Source: a virus (Duplodnaviria; Heunggongvirae; Uroviricota; Caudoviricetes). Taken from it: 39,994 nt of DNA. Every line of letters starts with the position of its first letter. The stretch's first letter is position 1. Below, one piece after another: positions 28,404-39,994 of this stretch. The notes beneath the pieces were generated by a model that did not search any database, was not told the DNA's origin, and worked only from the letters and a program-made list of their open reading frames with translations. A program made the translations under genes and the position numbers. The stretch is from the IMG/VR virus record IMGVR_UViG_2703718828_000004, positions 1 through 39,994 of that record; one strand, 5' to 3'.

Positions 28404-28552
28404 CGGCTGAATACCTCACTGATCGCTTCTTTGACTGCGCCAGCTACTGGCGCATTAATCCCTTCGAATTGCTGAATATGCCGATCAGTGAAATTCCCTT
28501 GCTGGTCAGTCAGGCAAACAGGATAGAGCAGGAGAAACGCACACATGGCTGA
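28134..28552 (+). CDS. Tail assembly chaperone, long form via programmed -1 frameshift at T_TTT_TTC (28385-28391)
   Basis: Slippery heptamer in the 0 frame near the short-form stop; the -1 frame (FFPPGLTAEY...) stays open to 28552, overlapping the tape measure start. Confidence 0.55.
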
Positions 28553-30335
28553 GTTTGAGCTTAAGGCGTTGATCACCGGTGTCGACAGGCTTTCTCCCGC
28601 GCTGTCGAAAATGCAAAAGAAAATCCGGGGATTTAAACGCCAGGCGGAAGAAGCGTCACAGGGTGGGCTGGCGCTTGGTGGCGGACTGGCTGCGGGTCTG
28701 ACGCTTTCCCTGAAATCTTATGCCGATCAGGAAAACGCCGCCACCGGGCTGAAAGTCGCCATGATGGATGCGAACGGCGAGGTCGGAAAGAGCTTTCAGG
28801 ACATCAATAAACTGGCTATTGGCCTGGGTAACCAGCTACCCGGTACAACGGCTGATTTCCAGAACATGATGCAGATGCTGGTGCGTCAGGGGATCCCGGC
28901 AGAAAACATTCTTGGCGGTGTGGGTAAAGCGACAGCTTATCTTGCGGTACAACTGAAAAAAACACCGGAAGCGGCTGCCGAGTTTGCCGCAAAGATGCAG
29001 GATGCTACCGGAACGGCGTCAGAAGACATGATGGGGCTGTTCGACACTATCCAGAAGGCGTTTTATCTGGGCGTTGACGATACCAACATGTTGTCCTTCT
29101 TCACTAAAACCAGCTCTGTTCTGAAGATGGTGAACAAGGACGGTCTTCAGGCTGCACAGAGCCTTGCCCCCATCAGCGTCATGATGGATCAGATGGGGAT
29201 GAACGGGGAGTCGGCAGGTAACGCCCTGCGAAAAGTTATCCAGTCCGGATTAAGCGTTAAGAAAATCAGGGACGTCAATAAAATCATGGCCCGCCAGAAA
29301 CTCGGGGTACAGCTCGATTTTACTGACGGCAAAGGGAGTTTTGGCGGTCTTGATAACATGTTCAGGCAACTGGCAAAGCTGCGAAAACTGACCGACGTTA
29401 AGCGAACAGGCGTACTTAAGGCAATATTTGGTGATGATGCCGAAACCCTTCAGGTGGTCAATGCACTAATCGATAAAGGAAAGGATGGCTACGATCAGAT
29501 CCAGCAGAAGATGAATAAACAGGCCAGCCTGAATAAACGTGTTCAGGCTCAGCTTGGTACGCTGTCCAACCTGTGGGAGGCAATGACGGGGACCGCAACT
29601 AACGGTCTTGCAGCTATTGGCGGCGCATTTTCTGGTGACGCCAAAAATATCACGCAGTGGCTGGGGGAGTTGGGGGAGAAATTCACGAAGTTTGCGGATG
29701 AAAATCCCCGGGTTATTCGCGGCGTCGTCGGGCTTGCTGCCGGTCTTGCGATTCTGAAACTGGGATTGATGGGCGTTGGCGGTGCCATCAGTATTGTCAG
29801 CAGGATCATGTCGATGACGCCGATTGGCATGATTGCGACGGCGATAGCCCTGGCTGCGGGATTAATTATCACTAACTGGGATGTTGTCGGACCTTATTTT
29901 AAGAAACTCTGGGAAACCATTGGTCCTTATTTTGAGGCTGGCTGGGAACTCCTTAAGAAAGTTTTTGCCTGGTCGCCGCTGGGGATGGTGATCAATAACT
30001 GGGGGCCGGTTGTTAAGTGGTTTCAGGATATGTGGGACAAGCTGAAGCCAATTATTGAGTGGTTTACCGACAGTTCCGGTGACACGGTCGATGCCATTAA
30101 CTCTGCGCAGTGGGGAGCCGGTGGTTACGGCGCGTATGGTACAGGAGTGGCTAGTTCAGGATATAACCCTTATCAGATCAAACAGGGAACGGCGACTCAA
30201 CCGAAAGGATCCATCACCGTTGAGTTCAAAGGTGCCCCACAAGGAATGAGTGTTACTGATAGCCGTTCCACAGGTATAGATGTTAACCATGATGTAGGTT
30301 ACACAAGGATAGGGAGGACTGGAATGGGAGGGTAA
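28545..30335 (+). CDS. Tail tape measure protein (596 aa)
   Basis: Long Ala/Gly-rich protein with hydrophobic segments and a Trp-rich C-terminal region; follows the frameshifted chaperone. Confidence 0.85.
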   Translation: MAEFELKALITGVDRLSPALSKMQKKIRGFKRQAEEASQGGLALGGGLAAGLTLSLKSYADQENAATGLKVAMMDANGEVGKSFQDINKLAIGLGNQLPGTTADFQNMMQMLVRQGIPAENILGGVGKATAYLAVQLKKTPEAAAEFAAKMQDATGTASEDMMGLFDTIQKAFYLGVDDTNMLSFFTKTSSVLKMVNKDGLQAAQSLAPISVMMDQMGMNGESAGNALRKVIQSGLSVKKIRDVNKIMARQKLGVQLDFTDGKGSFGGLDNMFRQLAKLRKLTDVKRTGVLKAIFGDDAETLQVVNALIDKGKDGYDQIQQKMNKQASLNKRVQAQLGTLSNLWEAMTGTATNGLAAIGGAFSGDAKNITQWLGELGEKFTKFADENPRVIRGVVGLAAGLAILKLGLMGVGGAISIVSRIMSMTPIGMIATAIALAAGLIITNWDVVGPYFKKLWETIGPYFEAGWELLKKVFAWSPLGMVINNWGPVVKWFQDMWDKLKPIIEWFTDSSGDTVDAINSAQWGAGGYGAYGTGVASSGYNPYQIKQGTATQPKGSITVEFKGAPQGMSVTDSRSTGIDVNHDVGYTRIGRTGMGG

Positions 30336-30351
30336 ACCTCCCATTGTTTTT
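30326..30351 (+). terminator. Terminator after the tape measure gene
   Basis: Stem GGGAGG/CCTCCC followed by ATTGTTTTT; abuts the stop of the convergent reverse-strand gene. Confidence 0.55.
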
Positions 30352-30787
30352 AATTGATGAACCTTGCGAAATTTCCCTCTGAGTCATATTCCGCCTTGGC
30401 GACATTTTTAACCATTCCCCCTAATTGGTTTTTGCCACGGAACTGCATGATCATGACGTAATCATCTTTACGACGTATAACGTTAGTTTCGATACATTCA
30501 AAACTATCGGGATCATTCATTGATTCTTTCACGCGATCTTTCATATCAAGTGGACAACCATCCAAAGAGCGTGTGAGCTTTGCCATAACAAGCTCCTCTT
30601 TAGTTTTTTCTTTTTCTGGGGGAGTCATAACAAACGCTGCGATTATCAGTGGTGCGAAGAATCCAAAAACAGCACCGAGAAGAGCAGCCATTATTTTTCT
30701 GGGCTTGGTCTTTTCTTTTTTATAAGCCCACCGTCCTATGAAAACGGCTAGCAACAAACCCAGTATTAACGGCAAAAACATTTCCAT
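30350..30787 (-). CDS. Reverse-strand cargo gene: two-TM membrane protein with about 90-aa C-terminal domain (145 aa)
   Basis: TM1 FLPLILGLLLAVFIG, basic loop, TM2 IMAALLGAVFGFFAPLIIAAFVM, soluble domain with two Cys; RBS AAGGAGAGG; AT-rich; opposite strand to the whole tail operon. Confidence 0.7.
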   Translation of the reverse strand: MEMFLPLILGLLLAVFIGRWAYKKEKTKPRKIMAALLGAVFGFFAPLIIAAFVMTPPEKEKTKEELVMAKLTRSLDGCPLDMKDRVKESMNDPDSFECIETNVIRRKDDYVMIMQFRGKNQLGGMVKNVAKAEYDSEGNFARFIN

Positions 30788-30851
30788 TTATACCTCTCCT
30801 TAAAGGTAAATGTTCTCTGGCGCTTCGAAAGAAGCGTCTGAAACAGAGTAG

Positions 30852-30880
30852 CTTATAACAAATCATATTGGTGCAGACAA
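30852..30880 (-). promoter_or_regulatory. Predicted sigma70 promoter for the reverse-strand cargo gene (TTGTCT, 17 nt, extended -10 TGTTATAAG)
   Basis: Reverse complement of 30852-30880 gives -35 TTGTCT and -10 TATAAG with an upstream TG; palindrome CGCTTCGAAAGAAGCG (30822-30837) lies between promoter and RBS. Confidence 0.5.
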
Positions 30881-32208
30881 TGGCGTGGAAAGACAGACTG
30901 GTTGAAGCGTCGTTTCGCGGCGTTCCGTTCAAGGTAGAAGATGAAGGGGCCCCGGTAGGACGTCGGGTTGAAACGCATGAATACCCAAACCGCGACAAAC
31001 CCTATACCGAAGACCTGGGGAAAATCACTTTCCGCCCGTCCATCACAGCTTATGTGGTGGGAGATGACTGCTTTGACCAGCGCGATCGCCTGATTGACGC
31101 GCTGAATAAACCCGGTCCAGGCACGCTTGTCCATCCGACTTACGGTGAGTTGAAAGTCTGTGTTGACGGAGAGGTTCGGGTCAGCACATCGAAAAGTGAA
31201 GGGCGTATTGTCCGCTTTGACCTGAAGTTTGTCGAAGCAGGAGAACTTTCTTACCCCACATCAGGTGCGGCGACGGCGCAGACGCTGATGTCATCCTGTT
31301 CTGCACTGGATGACTGCATCAGTGACAGCTTCAGCAGTTTCAGTATCGATGGCGTGGCGGATTTTGTGCAGAACGACGTCGTTGGTAATGCCAGCACAAT
31401 GCTTGGGTATGTTTCTGATGCGATGAAAGTGGTGGATTCTGCCGTATCGGATGCTGCCAGGCTGTTGCAGGGGGATATCTCGGTACTTCTGCCGCCACCA
31501 TCGTCAGGCAAAAATTTCGTTGAGCAGGTGCAGAAAATGTGGCGTACCGGGAAACGCCTTTACGGTAACGCCAGCGACCTGGTCACCATGATCAAAACGC
31601 TTTCTGGTGTCAGCCTTGGCAGCGATCTGCAACCGCGCGGCGTCTGGAAAACGGACAGTAAAACCACCGCCACGGCGACGCAGCAGCGTAACGTGGTTGC
31701 CAGCACCCTTCGTACGACTGCAATCAGCGAAGCGGCGTATGCCGTTACCCGATTGCCTGCGCCAACAACTTCCGCGGTGATGCAGAATGCCGCAGTGGGG
31801 CAGGCAACAACACCCGCGCAGAGCACTGGCTGGCCTTCCGTCACGCATCCGGCACTGAACAATGCACCGGCGGTGAAAAGCACGGTTGACCTGCCAACGT
31901 GGGAAGAACTGACTGACATTCGCGACACACTGAATACGGCAATTGATAAGGAGTTGTCCCGTACAACCAGTGATGCGCTGTTTCTGGCACTGCGCCGGGT
32001 GAAAGCAGATCTGAATGCGGATATCAACACGCGCCTTGAACAGTCTGCACGGATCATTCAGCGCACACCGGATGAGGTTTTACCCGCGCTGGTGCTGGCG
32101 GCGACCTGGTTTGATAACGCGGCGCGTGACGCGGACATTATCCGGCGTAATGCCATTACGCATCCCGGCTTTGTGCCGGTGATCCCTCTGAAGGTGCCAG
32201 TGCAATGA
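30880..32208 (+). CDS. DNA circulation protein (Mu gp43-like)
   Basis: Position after the tape measure gene and size about 443 aa. Confidence 0.65.
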   Translation: MAWKDRLVEASFRGVPFKVEDEGAPVGRRVETHEYPNRDKPYTEDLGKITFRPSITAYVVGDDCFDQRDRLIDALNKPGPGTLVHPTYGELKVCVDGEVRVSTSKSEGRIVRFDLKFVEAGELSYPTSGAATAQTLMSSCSALDDCISDSFSSFSIDGVADFVQNDVVGNASTMLGYVSDAMKVVDSAVSDAARLLQGDISVLLPPPSSGKNFVEQVQKMWRTGKRLYGNASDLVTMIKTLSGVSLGSDLQPRGVWKTDSKTTATATQQRNVVASTLRTTAISEAAYAVTRLPAPTTSAVMQNAAVGQATTPAQSTGWPSVTHPALNNAPAVKSTVDLPTWEELTDIRDTLNTAIDKELSRTTSDALFLALRRVKADLNADINTRLEQSARIIQRTPDEVLPALVLAATWFDNAARDADIIRRNAITHPGFVPVIPLKVPVQ

Positions 32209-37592: not shown

Positions 37593-38750
37593 TCACTCTA
37601 CCTTTTCATCAAGCCAGTCCGCCCACCACTGCATCATCTCCCTGCGCTTATCGAGATACTGCGCATGGTTGTAAATACCGCGCACAGATCCGCCGTTGGC
37701 ATGTGCCAGTTGCACTTCAATAGCATCAGCAGGCCATTCGTGCTCGTTCATAATCGTGCTGAATTCATGCCTGAATCCGTGACCGCTTTCCAGACCCTCA
37801 TAGCCGATTCGTTTGATCACAAGTAATACCGCGTTCTCGCAGATTGGCTTCTTCTTATCGTTACGCCCGGCAAAAACAAACTCTGATACTGGTTTGGTGA
37901 TGGAGCTTAACGTAGTGAGAAGTTCAACCACCTGGTCCGACATCGGGACCACATGAATCTTGCGTCCCTTCATCACACTGGCGTCGATAGTGATAATCCT
38001 GTTTTCAAAATCGACGTTATTCCATAGCATAGAACGAAGCTCTTTCGTTCTTAGGGCTGTGTAGCGTAAAACTTTGGTCGCAATGAGCGATACGATACTA
38101 CCTGAAAATGTTGCCAGTGCTTTATTGAATGCCGGGATCTGGTCTGCAGGAAGAAACGGGAAGTTCTTCTTGCGGTATCCCTTCATGGCGTCAGCAAGGT
38201 CAGGTGCCGGGTTATATTTAGCCCTGCCGGTGACAATAGCGTAACGGAAAACCTCGCCGCATCTTCTGCGTGCTTTGTTGGCTCGCTCCATTGCACCGCG
38301 ATCTTCAAATCTGCGGATTACTTCCAGCAGTTGCATCGGCTCAATATCCTGAATCTCAAGACCGCCGATGATGGGTAAAATGTCGTCATCAAACATTTTT
38401 GCAAGTTCATTTGCATAGCCTACTGACCAGACTTGCTTCTTGTGCTCGTACCATTCCTTGTAAATCGCACTAAAGGAATTGTTGTTAGACGAAGCCTTTT
38501 TCGCCTTTACCGGATCGATGCCGACCGAGATGTCTTTCCTCGCAGTCCATGCTTTATCCCTTGCCTCCTGCAAAGTCATTAGCGGATATTTCCCGACAGT
38601 CAGGATTTTCTCCTTACCGTCAATCTTGTAGCGAAGCTGCCAGACCTTTTTTCCGGATACAGGGACATAAAGGTACAGGCCATTACCATCGAGAAGGCGG
38701 TATGGTTTTTCTTTCGGCTTTGCTGCTTCAATCTGCTTAACGGTGAGCAT
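37593..38750 (-). CDS. intS: Tyrosine integrase, P4-type (IntS-like)
   Basis: N-terminal MLTVKQIEAAKPKEKPYRLLDGNGLYLYV typical of P4-family integrases; C-terminal catalytic region with HxxR and Tyr; adjacent to the tRNA 3' end. Confidence 0.85.
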   Translation of the reverse strand: MLTVKQIEAAKPKEKPYRLLDGNGLYLYVPVSGKKVWQLRYKIDGKEKILTVGKYPLMTLQEARDKAWTARKDISVGIDPVKAKKASSNNNSFSAIYKEWYEHKKQVWSVGYANELAKMFDDDILPIIGGLEIQDIEPMQLLEVIRRFEDRGAMERANKARRRCGEVFRYAIVTGRAKYNPAPDLADAMKGYRKKNFPFLPADQIPAFNKALATFSGSIVSLIATKVLRYTALRTKELRSMLWNNVDFENRIITIDASVMKGRKIHVVPMSDQVVELLTTLSSITKPVSEFVFAGRNDKKKPICENAVLLVIKRIGYEGLESGHGFRHEFSTIMNEHEWPADAIEVQLAHANGGSVRGIYNHAQYLDKRREMMQWWADWLDEKVE

Positions 38751-38911
38751 GGGTAAAAATCCGGTGGGTAAAATTATTTTATCCACTTTTTACCCGTCAT
38801 GGAGTGCGGCTGTCAACGATCTGACGCGAACCATTACGAACTGTGAATCTACGGAAGGCTTGATATTCAGGGGATTTTGCGGACTGGTACGGATGGGAGC
38901 GAACTGATAAA

Positions 38912-39061: not shown

Positions 39062-39994
39062 TTATGCCGGGTTTTTATAATTTTTCTTAATGTTTTCCGC
39101 ACGTTCTGCTTTTTGGCGTGCTTCTGCTTTACGCTTATTGCTCATGTCGTTACGAATCTGTGCATGACTCATTAACGCGAAGATAAAGGTGCCGCCGCAG
39201 ATGTTCCCCGCTAAAGTAGGTAGTGCGAAGGGCCAGATGAAATCGCTCCAGTGCAGCGTACCGTTAAACACCAGATAGAGGATTTCAACAGAACCGACCA
39301 CGATATGGGTGGTGTCACCCAGGGCAATAAGCCAGGTCATCAATATAATCACCACAATCTTTGCCGCACCCGCTGCAGGAAACATCCAAACCATAGTGGC
39401 GATCAGCCAGCCGGAAATGATCGCGTTGGCAAACATCTCGCTGGGGGTGTTCTTCATCACATCCATGCCGATTTTGACAAATGCATCGCGAGTTTCTTCA
39501 TTGAAGATAGGCATATATTCAAATGCCCACGCCGCAATACCTGTCCCGAGAATATTACCCAGCAGCACGACGCCCCATAACCGTATAAGTAAGCCGACGT
39601 TGCTCATTGTCGGTTTTTGCATGACGGGTAGTACCGCAGTCACGGTATTTTCGGTAAATAATTGCTGGCGGGCCATAATGACGATAATAAAACCAAAGGT
39701 ATAACCGAGATTCTCCAGCAAGAAGCTGCCCGGCACACCTTCCAGTTCGACATGAAATATCCCTTTTGCCAGTAACGAAGCGCCCATCGACAGACCCGCC
39801 GCAATGGCTGACCACAGTAGCGCCATTGCGTCGCGTTCCAGCTCTTTTTCACCATCCTGGCGGATATGCTCATGAATTGCCATCGCCCGGGAGGGGAGTC
39901 GGTCTTCATCTATTTCTATTTTTTTGCCGCGCTCTTTTTCTTCGCTCTCAACTTCAATTTCGTCGCTGTGTTGATCAATTTTGTCGTTGTCCAT
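39062..39994 (-). CDS. yfdC: Formate/nitrite transporter family inner-membrane protein (YfdC-like, 310 aa); host gene
   Basis: Polytopic membrane protein with an acidic N-terminal extension; recalled as YfdC, the neighbour of argW in E. coli. Confidence 0.7.
   Translation of the reverse strand: MDNDKIDQHSDEIEVESEEKERGKKIEIDEDRLPSRAMAIHEHIRQDGEKELERDAMALLWSAIAAGLSMGASLLAKGIFHVELEGVPGSFLLENLGYTFGFIIVIMARQQLFTENTVTAVLPVMQKPTMSNVGLLIRLWGVVLLGNILGTGIAAWAFEYMPIFNEETRDAFVKIGMDVMKNTPSEMFANAIISGWLIATMVWMFPAAGAAKIVVIILMTWLIALGDTTHIVVGSVEILYLVFNGTLHWSDFIWPFALPTLAGNICGGTFIFALMSHAQIRNDMSNKRKAEARQKAERAENIKKNYKNPA

Follow-up and report, generated by a model that had tools for sequence, protein, structure and literature searches.

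We suggest, with high confidence, that the 145-residue open reading frame (ORF) on the minus strand at 30350..30787 of a 39,994-nt stretch of tailed-phage DNA (IMG/VR record IMGVR_UViG_2703718828_000004, positions 1 to 39,994; hereafter the window) is a genuine moron-type accessory gene, that it occupies a previously undescribed cargo hotspot of SfV-type prophages, and that its product is anchored in the inner membrane and bears a periplasmic cystatin/NTF2-like domain. For the role of this protein we tentatively propose envelope-level superinfection exclusion, by analogy with HK97 gp15, with Ltp and with a sister cassette annotated as superinfection exclusion (Sie); we regard this role as possible and somewhat short of probable.

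The ORF starts with ATG, and its product is identical to RefSeq WP_061350224.1, which is labelled 'hypothetical protein'. It fills the gap between two plus-strand genes of an SfV/SfI/SfII-type prophage: the tail tape measure gene on its left (28545..30335, 596 amino acids; PF10145 PhageMin_Tail, E = 1.2e-26, and RefSeq annotation) and the Mu gp43-like DNA circularization/circulation gene on its right (30880..32208; PF07157, E = 4.4e-33; RefSeq start at 30880). From 8233 to 37238 all other long gene-compatible ORFs lie on the plus strand, and the 145-residue gene is the sole reverse one in the late region. The cassette consists of this single ORF in 544 bp between conserved tail genes. The GC content of the gap is 0.406 versus 0.518 in the tape measure gene and 0.559 in the DNA-circulation gene, and at third codon positions the ORF has a GC content of 0.40 versus 0.57 and 0.59; the gene thus deviates in base composition from the surrounding genes in the manner of morons. 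A first reading of the bases without database searches (the sequence-only reading) had described a reverse-strand ORF between these two genes in a region that is AT-rich relative to the tail genes, and the ORF calls, the families of the flanking genes and the GC values agree with it on each point.

Morons and prophage hotspots are well known in general, and comparison with related prophages points to one such slot here. The flanking DNA is 92-95% identical to that of the Shigella serotype-converting phages SfV, SfI and SfII and of Escherichia phages, and matches to it occur in 1091 of 5426 complete E. coli genomes. The region homologous to 29800-31400 spans 1162 bp in SfV, SfI and SfII versus 1601 bp in the window, and the gap is therefore empty in these phages; in SfII a putative rho-independent terminator is the only annotation between the two genes. 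The gap has 1244 occurrences in total. In an even-step sample of 60 of the 1099 matching records, 50 loci spanned both flanks, and the cargo type of each span class was assigned from span length and annotation, with one example of each type inspected. By this assignment the gap was empty in 26 of the 50 loci (span 1158-1162 bp) and held a 170-amino-acid signal-peptide protein, as in phage SKA5, in 12 (1779-1783 bp), a 225-amino-acid lipoprotein with an LLGGC lipobox in four (1860 or 1920 bp), a minus-strand 'OB-fold protein' in four (1545 or 1688 bp), a bPH_1 'PH domain' protein in two (1595 or 1715 bp), a 176-amino-acid protein with an N-terminal transmembrane (TM) segment in one (1535 bp) and the 145-residue cassette of the window in one (1601 bp). 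An export or membrane signal is present in five of the six alternative cargo proteins, and the PHROG families among the cassettes include phrog_1353 (the lipoprotein), phrog_8976 and phrog_5485. Given that the gap is either empty or occupied by one of at least six alternative cassettes, we conclude that it is a cargo hotspot. The bPH_1 cassette (L016:934-1311, plus strand, in E. coli MJ-T; also in H90) encodes 125 amino acids matching PF08000 (E = 3e-48) and phrog_7115; this protein looks cytoplasmic and is the sole cargo among those seen without an export or membrane signal.

The 145-residue gene is present or absent at one site between conserved genes, being missing from SfV, SfI, SfII and the 26 empty loci. 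The proposal that it is a moron-type accessory gene is accordingly borne out by its absence in relatives, its replacement by unrelated genes, its deviant composition and its antisense orientation. Literature searches on the protein accession and on a hotspot between tape measure and DNA-circulation genes found nothing, and the genome papers on SfIV and SfII place their morons at other sites of the genome (PMC3851460, PMC3772137).

Homologues of exactly the same length (145 amino acids) and with 63-88% identity are found in Buttiauxella izardii, Citrobacter and metagenomes, and syntenic orthologues with 63-76% identity are found in Buttiauxella and metagenomic prophages. In all cases examined among these loci (L007-L013), the gene has the PhageMin_Tail and DNA_circ_N genes of an SfV-type tail module on its two sides and is antisense to them. 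Between the orthologous loci, pairwise nonsynonymous divergence (pN) is 0.14-0.26, whereas synonymous divergence (pS) is saturated at 0.63-0.90; low pN with saturated pS implies that the gene is under purifying selection. The bare annotation as 'hypothetical protein' and the lack of a curated family might raise the suspicion that the ORF is spurious or decaying, a piece of AT-rich junk separating two tail genes. We give this explanation practically no credence: it is at odds with the exact-length orthologues in several genera at 63-88% identity, with the low pN at saturated synonymous sites, with the conserved start codon and ribosome-binding site (RBS) and with the high confidence of the AlphaFold2 models (predicted local distance difference test, pLDDT, 87-89), and as read from these alignments it is effectively refuted by conservation and selection.

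The 145-residue protein (63-74% identity) has diverged about as far as the DNA-circulation protein next to it (63-74%) and as most of the tape measure proteins (77-80%), suggesting that the gene is a long-term resident of one sub-lineage rather than a recent insertion. The sequence-only reading had called the gene inserted; this description stands in the comparative sense that the site is empty in relatives, but not as a recent event, since the divergence matches that of the neighbours. At locus L012 the tape measure protein is 42% identical versus 74% for the 145-residue protein, indicating that the junction is also a recombination breakpoint. The complete 544-bp cassette occurs in only five of the 5426 complete E. 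coli genomes, at 99.6-100% identity and with flanks at ~95-98%, and the cassette appears to be rare yet old; its E. coli carriers include CUPS SST 5/1, 2017.10.01CC and 102651.

Two E. coli genomes have insertion sequences at or near this site. In 14EC033 (NZ_CP024147.1; L014:2288-3156), a sixth genome, the promoter-proximal 156 bp of the cassette are left and abut IS1A; the deletion took the tape measure gene, most of the 145-residue gene and the upstream late genes, and the early recombination genes are now joined to the DNA-circulation gene. In the cassette-bearing strain 102651 (L006:1-1959), an IS3-family transposase gene lies directly upstream of a shortened tape measure gene (548 versus 596 amino acids), from which it follows that this prophage is probably defective.

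According to the junction alignment, the cassette's right end coincides exactly with the ATG of the DNA-circulation gene. Where the gap is empty or carries plus-strand cargo, this gene is preceded by a terminator and then by CGGAGTTTAT-ATG, which includes a GGAG RBS; in the window both elements are replaced by the upstream region of the cassette, and a weak GGTG is left before the ATG. At the left end the terminator scan reports a hairpin on the plus strand at 30323..30345, AATGGGAGG-GTAAA-CCTCCCATT followed by GTTTTTAATT, between the convergent stop codons. Its stem is 9 bp long with GTTTTT after it on the plus strand, and the last five tape measure codons (TGMGG) and the stop codon lie inside it. 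This GC-rich hairpin is conserved: the OB-fold cassette and every orthologous locus have it, and the substitutions there maintain the pairing of the stem. The scan scores it as a terminator solely on the strand of the tape measure gene, both in the window and in L008 and L012; on the strand of the 145-residue gene it is a 3' hairpin without a U-tract. All states of the gap, including the empty one of SfII, have a terminator-like hairpin immediately past the tape measure gene, ahead of the baseplate genes (window 30333-30345; L002:2094-2132). This suggests that the hairpin is an ancestral transcriptional punctuation point or an mRNA 3'-end element inside the tail operon. A terminator at such a position would be tolerable because the SfV-type phage group encodes a Q antiterminator (PMC3851460, PMC3772137); by analogy with established lambdoid biology, late transcription would read through it.

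Upstream of the 145-residue gene, the Shine-Dalgarno sequence AAGGAGAGG (30793..30801, minus strand) lies 5 nt from the ATG and has a GAGG core that is conserved in the orthologous loci; it is predicted to be a strong RBS. The gene had been credited with its own RBS, and this element at 30801-30793 confirms it. At 30791-30808 of the window (minus strand) the Shine-Dalgarno sequence is predicted to pair with an upstream ACCUUUA in a 7-bp hairpin that is absent from the orthologous loci and that may damp translation or reflect chance pairing.

The candidate sigma-70 promoter at 30852..30880 (minus strand) consists of a -35 hexamer TTGTCT (30880-30875), a 17-nt spacer, a TG at 30860-30859 and a -10 hexamer TATAAG (30857-30852). 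It matches the consensus at 9 of 12 positions, and its -10 hexamer ends in G rather than in the critical T. The sequence-only reading had described a near-consensus sigma70 promoter with an extended -10; the hexamers, the spacer and the TG are where it had placed them, but with 9 of 12 positions and a failed neutral scan (see below) the element is not near-consensus. Phylogeny supports it best: apart from the RBS, the intergenic alignment is unconserved except for a single invariant block, TTG.T.TA...T at 30861-30850, where three orthologues have better -10 hexamers (TATATT, TATAGT). Taken together, the TTGTCT-17-TATAAG element reads as a plausible promoter. The neutral scan reports an overlapping alternative candidate, TTTCCA-18-TATGAT (30862..30891, minus strand), with its -35 hexamer inside the DNA-circulation coding sequence and a poorly conserved -10 hexamer. 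The -35 hexamer of the main candidate lies directly against the ATG with which the DNA-circulation gene begins on the opposite strand, and late transcription would therefore run head-on through the promoter; from this geometry we infer that the late operon and the promoter of the 145-residue gene interfere with each other in lytic growth.

Between promoter and RBS, in the presumed 5' untranslated region (UTR), lies the palindrome CGCTTC-TTTC-GAAGCG (30821..30836, minus strand), which had been proposed as a possible operator. The palindrome is present, and by our estimate a palindrome alone is a ~1-in-10 chance event for an intergenic region of such size. The operator role was rejected: CGCTTC-N4-GAAGCG with up to two mismatches has two matches in the window, including the palindrome itself, versus 2.3 expected, and thus does not recur in the prophage beyond chance. 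Fold z-scores of the 5' UTR in five orthologous loci (-2.9 in the window, then +1.6, -1.7, -3.8 and +0.1) show mixed conservation of a hairpin, and a search of 30200-31000 against Rfam gave only a chance-level match to sraA (E = 0.71). Most simply, the palindrome is possibly an RNA hairpin.

The protein is predicted to consist of four parts, all encoded on the minus strand: TM helix 1 (residues ~3-19, 30731..30781; hydropathy 2.0-2.45 in 17-residue windows, preceded by Met-Glu), the basic loop RWAYKKEKTKPRK with a net charge of +6 (residues 19-31, 30695..30733), TM helix 2 (residues ~32-54, 30626..30694; hydropathy 2.1-2.4) and a C-terminal domain (residues 58-145, 30353..30616) of two helices and a four-stranded sheet containing Cys78 and Cys98. 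The full-length AlphaFold2 model (pLDDT 87) has helices at 5-24, 28-53, 63-72 and 80-88 followed by four strands, and residues 58-145 modelled alone give a pLDDT of 89 and a predicted template modelling score of 0.73. The basic loop is conserved in all ten 145-residue orthologues and is predicted to be cytoplasmic. Basic loops lie on the cytoplasmic side of the membrane according to the positive-inside rule, and the short acidic N-terminus combined with the +6 loop therefore predicts an N-out, loop-in, C-out topology. All ten enterobacterial orthologues have both cysteines, whereas every distant relative has Ser and His in their place; this clade-specific pair fits the prediction that the C-terminal domain is periplasmic and disulfide-bonded. 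Membrane anchoring, topology and a generic cystatin/NTF2-like fold are thus all predictions from modelling. Two hydrophobic helices, the +6 loop and the AlphaFold2 helices place the protein in silico in the cytoplasmic membrane, where envelope-type exclusion proteins (HK97 gp15, P22 SieA, T4 Imm/Sp, Ltp) are located. Hydropathy, structure prediction and sequence all reproduce the architecture first read from the ORF, i.e. two TM helices, a strongly basic loop and a C-terminal domain of ~90 residues with two Cys, and the suggested periplasm-facing domain is upheld in prediction by the positive-inside rule, the Cys pair and the membrane-tethered relatives described below. A class II holin or lysis protein was considered and rejected on the position of the gene in the tail operon, its antisense orientation and its folded extracytoplasmic domain of ~90 residues.

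The C-terminal domain carries the motif S.DG..VK..MNDPDS(F/Y)..ET..FRGKN.(F/L)GG.VKN, with K87, N91, D92, D94, S95, E100, T101, K119, N120 and N128 as invariant residues, and a profile search recovered 5083 clusters (at 50% identity) at E <= 1e-3 and 2816 at E <= 1e-10. Pfam, NCBIfam and PADLOC have no model for the domain and gave sub-threshold noise in the TM region only; the best E-value among the PADLOC-DB v2 defence profiles was 0.025, for short TM-region matches. In PHROGs the sole match is phrog_3403 (no known function; E = 2.6e-7, residues 75-135), and searching the PDB by sequence profile gave no solved structure related to the domain. The profile search and structure prediction proposed as checks on the sequence-only reading thus gave no curated family, but they did give phrog_3403 and a confident AlphaFold2 model. 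The domain forms the C-terminal part of all 78 distant genomic relatives and follows either a signal or TM anchor or a zinc ribbon plus TM segment, and the closest predicted viral structures are uncharacterised phage proteins, several of which are named lipoprotein, membrane protein or zinc-ribbon protein. A large family (~5000 clusters at 50% identity) that is absent from Pfam and always membrane-tethered merits definition in its own right. Sequence or structural homology to a characterised superinfection exclusion protein was not found; given that this holds for every characterised exclusion family, the protein plausibly works like these proteins without being one of them.

Genomic context bears on the proposed role. 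The OB-fold cassette of sister prophages has the same slot, strand, flanks and hairpin as the 145-residue gene, and its product matches phrog_8545 'superinfection exclusion Sie-like' (category moron; E = 2e-41, full length) as well as PF12869. Four distant relatives of the domain were looked up individually and all four lie in mobile or defence contexts: one in a defence island with AbiJ/AAA-ATPase genes, a resolvase and a type I restriction-modification system, one (L020) between a cI-like helix-turn-helix (HTH) gene and a phage integrase gene, one adjoining two Abi_C genes and one near an integrase gene. In a Gilliamella P2-like prophage the portal gene and gpA flank a homologue that has a protein kinase gene next to it; the gpA-gpQ (old/tin) slot of P2 is a validated defence hotspot (Rousset et al. 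2022, PMC9122126). On the siphovirus contig L147 a TM-plus-domain homologue, which matches phrog_3403 (E = 8.5e-11), lies between the major tail protein gene and a 1403-residue tape measure gene. Of the homologues on 41 distant viral contigs that are 20 kb or longer, 14 fall within the terminal 5% of the contig, where 10% would be expected (binomial P = 2.5e-5). These positions, together with the Sie-like annotation of the sister cassette, lend contextual support to the earlier suggestion of superinfection exclusion. The 150 nearest neighbours at 38 chromosomal loci include terminases, Cro/cI HTH, Phage_GPA, AbiJ and caspase genes, and phage integrase is the commonest family, yet with four of 150; because these neighbours are enriched for mobile-element genes but are mostly housekeeping genes, the domain family as a whole is not callable a defence family. 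We conclude that it is an envelope module repeatedly captured by phages and not a dedicated defence family.

Two viral contigs with homologues have further features. On L147 the homologue (L147:5741-6297) fills the usual place of the tail assembly chaperone, and a simple ORF call shows no separate chaperone ORF. On the Mu-like contig L144 a homologue of the C-terminal domain is encoded a few genes from a Mu F-like head protein (L144:8149-9444, minus strand; PF04233, E = 2.5e-14) with a C-terminal CdiA_C toxin domain (PF18451, E = 7.9e-11).

Combining the localization predictions with the genomic context, we propose the following scheme. A temperate SfV-type phage would keep the moron-type gene in the hotspot between tape measure and DNA-circulation genes. 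Transcription of the gene would probably be independent of the Q-antiterminated late operon and antisense to it, and would begin at a modest promoter overlapping the 5' end of the DNA-circulation gene; with this arrangement the lysogen could produce the protein even though its tail genes are silent. The protein would enter the inner membrane as a helical hairpin with its N-terminus outside and the +6 loop in the cytoplasm, exposing on the periplasmic face an 88-residue cystatin/NTF2-like binding domain that is probably disulfide-stabilised. The tethered domain may then bind the tail tip or tape measure of an incoming phage, or a conserved envelope factor for the DNA conduit, and in this way would block DNA entry while the outer-membrane receptor is kept, as for HK97 gp15 and Ltp. 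The data show that the gene is real and establish its hotspot, its synteny, its composition and selection, and the size and genomic contexts of its family; from them we infer expression from the prophage, and exclusion as function and mechanism.

Several observations weigh against this scheme. The neutral scan does not report the TTGTCT-17-TATAAG promoter, it finds promoter-like sites no more commonly than in shuffled sequences, and at the corresponding position it passed in only one of four orthologous loci (L007). Similarly, the terminator scan did not find a canonical terminator on the gene's own strand. The label 'Sie-like' on the OB-fold cassette is a database annotation rather than an experimental result, the enrichment at contig ends could partly be explained by errors in prophage-boundary prediction, and most of the 150 neighbouring ORFs at the 38 chromosomal loci of distant relatives are housekeeping genes. 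Finally, the polar motif of the domain is strongly conserved across phyla, which suggests a conserved ligand or a general envelope role rather than a fast-evolving phage-binding surface.

This last point leads to an alternative in which the protein is a lysogenic-conversion or fitness factor that acts apart from phage exclusion on envelope physiology (stress, serum or bile resistance, adhesion, peptidoglycan or lipid), like lambda Bor or Lom. The huge size of the domain family (5083 clusters), which is mostly chromosomal with housekeeping neighbours, fits such a function, as does the polar motif, whose invariance across phyla points to a universal ligand; cystatins, PepSY-type proteins and VirB8 belong to this fold class, a generic scaffold for binding or inhibition, and diverse host-benefit roles are known for moron products (PMC3594210). 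Nevertheless, we consider a fitness factor of this kind rather unlikely, given the Sie-annotated protein in the same slot of sister prophages and the recurrence of distant relatives in validated or classical anti-phage positions. Alternatively, the protein could give protection at the envelope in another way than by blocking DNA entry, as immunity to periplasm-acting toxins (colicins or effectors of contact-dependent inhibition or type VI secretion systems) or as a membrane sensor or effector of abortive infection. A small, membrane-tethered periplasmic protein, as predicted here, would be typical of immunity proteins; Abi and AAA-ATPase genes adjoin distant relatives, and membrane-anchored single-gene Abi proteins such as PdpSau and AbiP exist (PMC10127798). 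Yet the single-ORF 544-bp cassette has no cognate toxin or partner gene, PADLOC gave no match, and a loop of only 13 residues is available in the cytoplasm to signal or kill with, all of which makes protection of this sort distinctly improbable.

A late-expressed function in the lytic cycle, in tail or baseplate assembly or in the timing of lysis or injection, would agree with the location inside the tail operon and with the L147 homologue at the usual position of the tail assembly chaperone. The gene is, however, antisense to the late operon, it is absent from the viable phages SfV, SfI and SfII and from about half of the related prophages, unrelated proteins replace it in other prophages, and a membrane anchor with a periplasmic domain misfits cytoplasmic assembly; a lytic-cycle role has very little probability left and is effectively excluded. 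Envelope-level exclusion of superinfecting phages is the role that we favor. The broader proposition that the SfV-type gap is a hotspot for single-gene envelope exclusion cassettes, and that the phage members of the 'MNDPDS(Y/F)...FRGKN' family block genome entry via a conserved envelope or tail-tip component, is in our estimate doubtful.

If the protein excludes phages, it would add a new family to the few envelope-level exclusion proteins of understood mechanism, and it would matter for host range in phage therapy and for strain fitness driven by prophages. The hotspot would then offer a compact and easily mined source in a prophage type of ~1/5 of E. coli genomes and in the Shigella serotype-converting phages, with cassettes that are each a single small gene and suited to cloning and phage-panel screens. 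If the function lies in envelope physiology, the gene would still exemplify a host envelope module captured by phages.

Other parts of these prophages vary as well. In the Buttiauxella and metagenomic relatives (L007:2789-4479, L010:2645-4494, L012:2662-4478) two extra ORFs of ~470-520 and ~93 amino acids, without Pfam matches, separate the DNA-circulation gene from the GpP-like baseplate gene; neither the window nor L008 has them, and this interval may be a second variable region of the tail module. The right end of the window, beyond the tail genes, has two long minus-strand ORFs (37593-38786, 397 amino acids; 39062-39994, at least 310 amino acids) that could be integrase or O-antigen modification genes, as in SfV-type phages.

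The closest functional parallel is gp15 of HK97, a small inner-membrane moron product encoded in the tail operon and expressed from the prophage, which blocks genome entry without blocking the receptor (Cumby et al. 2012; reviewed in PMC3594210). Both proteins are small and belong to the inner membrane, by prediction in the case of the 145-residue protein, both are encoded by morons of deviant composition next to the tape measure gene, and both gp15/YebO and the 145-residue protein derive from mostly non-phage families; the L147 homologue even sits at the position of gp15 before the tape measure gene. The two differ in that they share no sequence relationship: gp15 is very small and YebO-like, and its gene precedes the tape measure gene in the sense orientation, whereas the 145-residue protein has two TM helices and an 88-residue periplasmic domain and is encoded downstream and antisense. 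Similarly, Ltp of the Streptococcus phage TP-J34 is expressed from the prophage, blocks DNA injection and is encoded next to integrase and repressor (PMC3952083). It resembles the 145-residue protein in its size of ~140 amino acids and its tethering on the outer face of the cytoplasmic membrane, and the distant homologue L020 occupies the same integrase/repressor-side position; Ltp is, however, a lipoprotein of different sequence from the lysogeny module of a phage with a Gram-positive host.

Within the hotspot itself, the phrog_8545 Sie-like protein with its PF12869 tRNA_anti-like OB-fold shares with the 145-residue protein an N-terminal membrane anchor, a length of ~150 amino acids and an identical slot, strand and terminal hairpin, but it is unrelated in sequence and fold (OB versus alpha-alpha-beta4) and has one TM helix rather than two. 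As for the slot, the old/tin hotspot of P2 likewise is a fixed intergenic position in a widespread E. coli prophage family with many alternative cassettes (PMC9122126), and the Gilliamella homologue of the domain lies in that very hotspot. The SfV-type slot differs in lying inside the tail operon and in holding single small genes of ~0.4-0.8 kb, mostly for envelope proteins. In total, these comparisons identify the 145-residue gene as a familiar kind of element that encodes an unstudied protein family.

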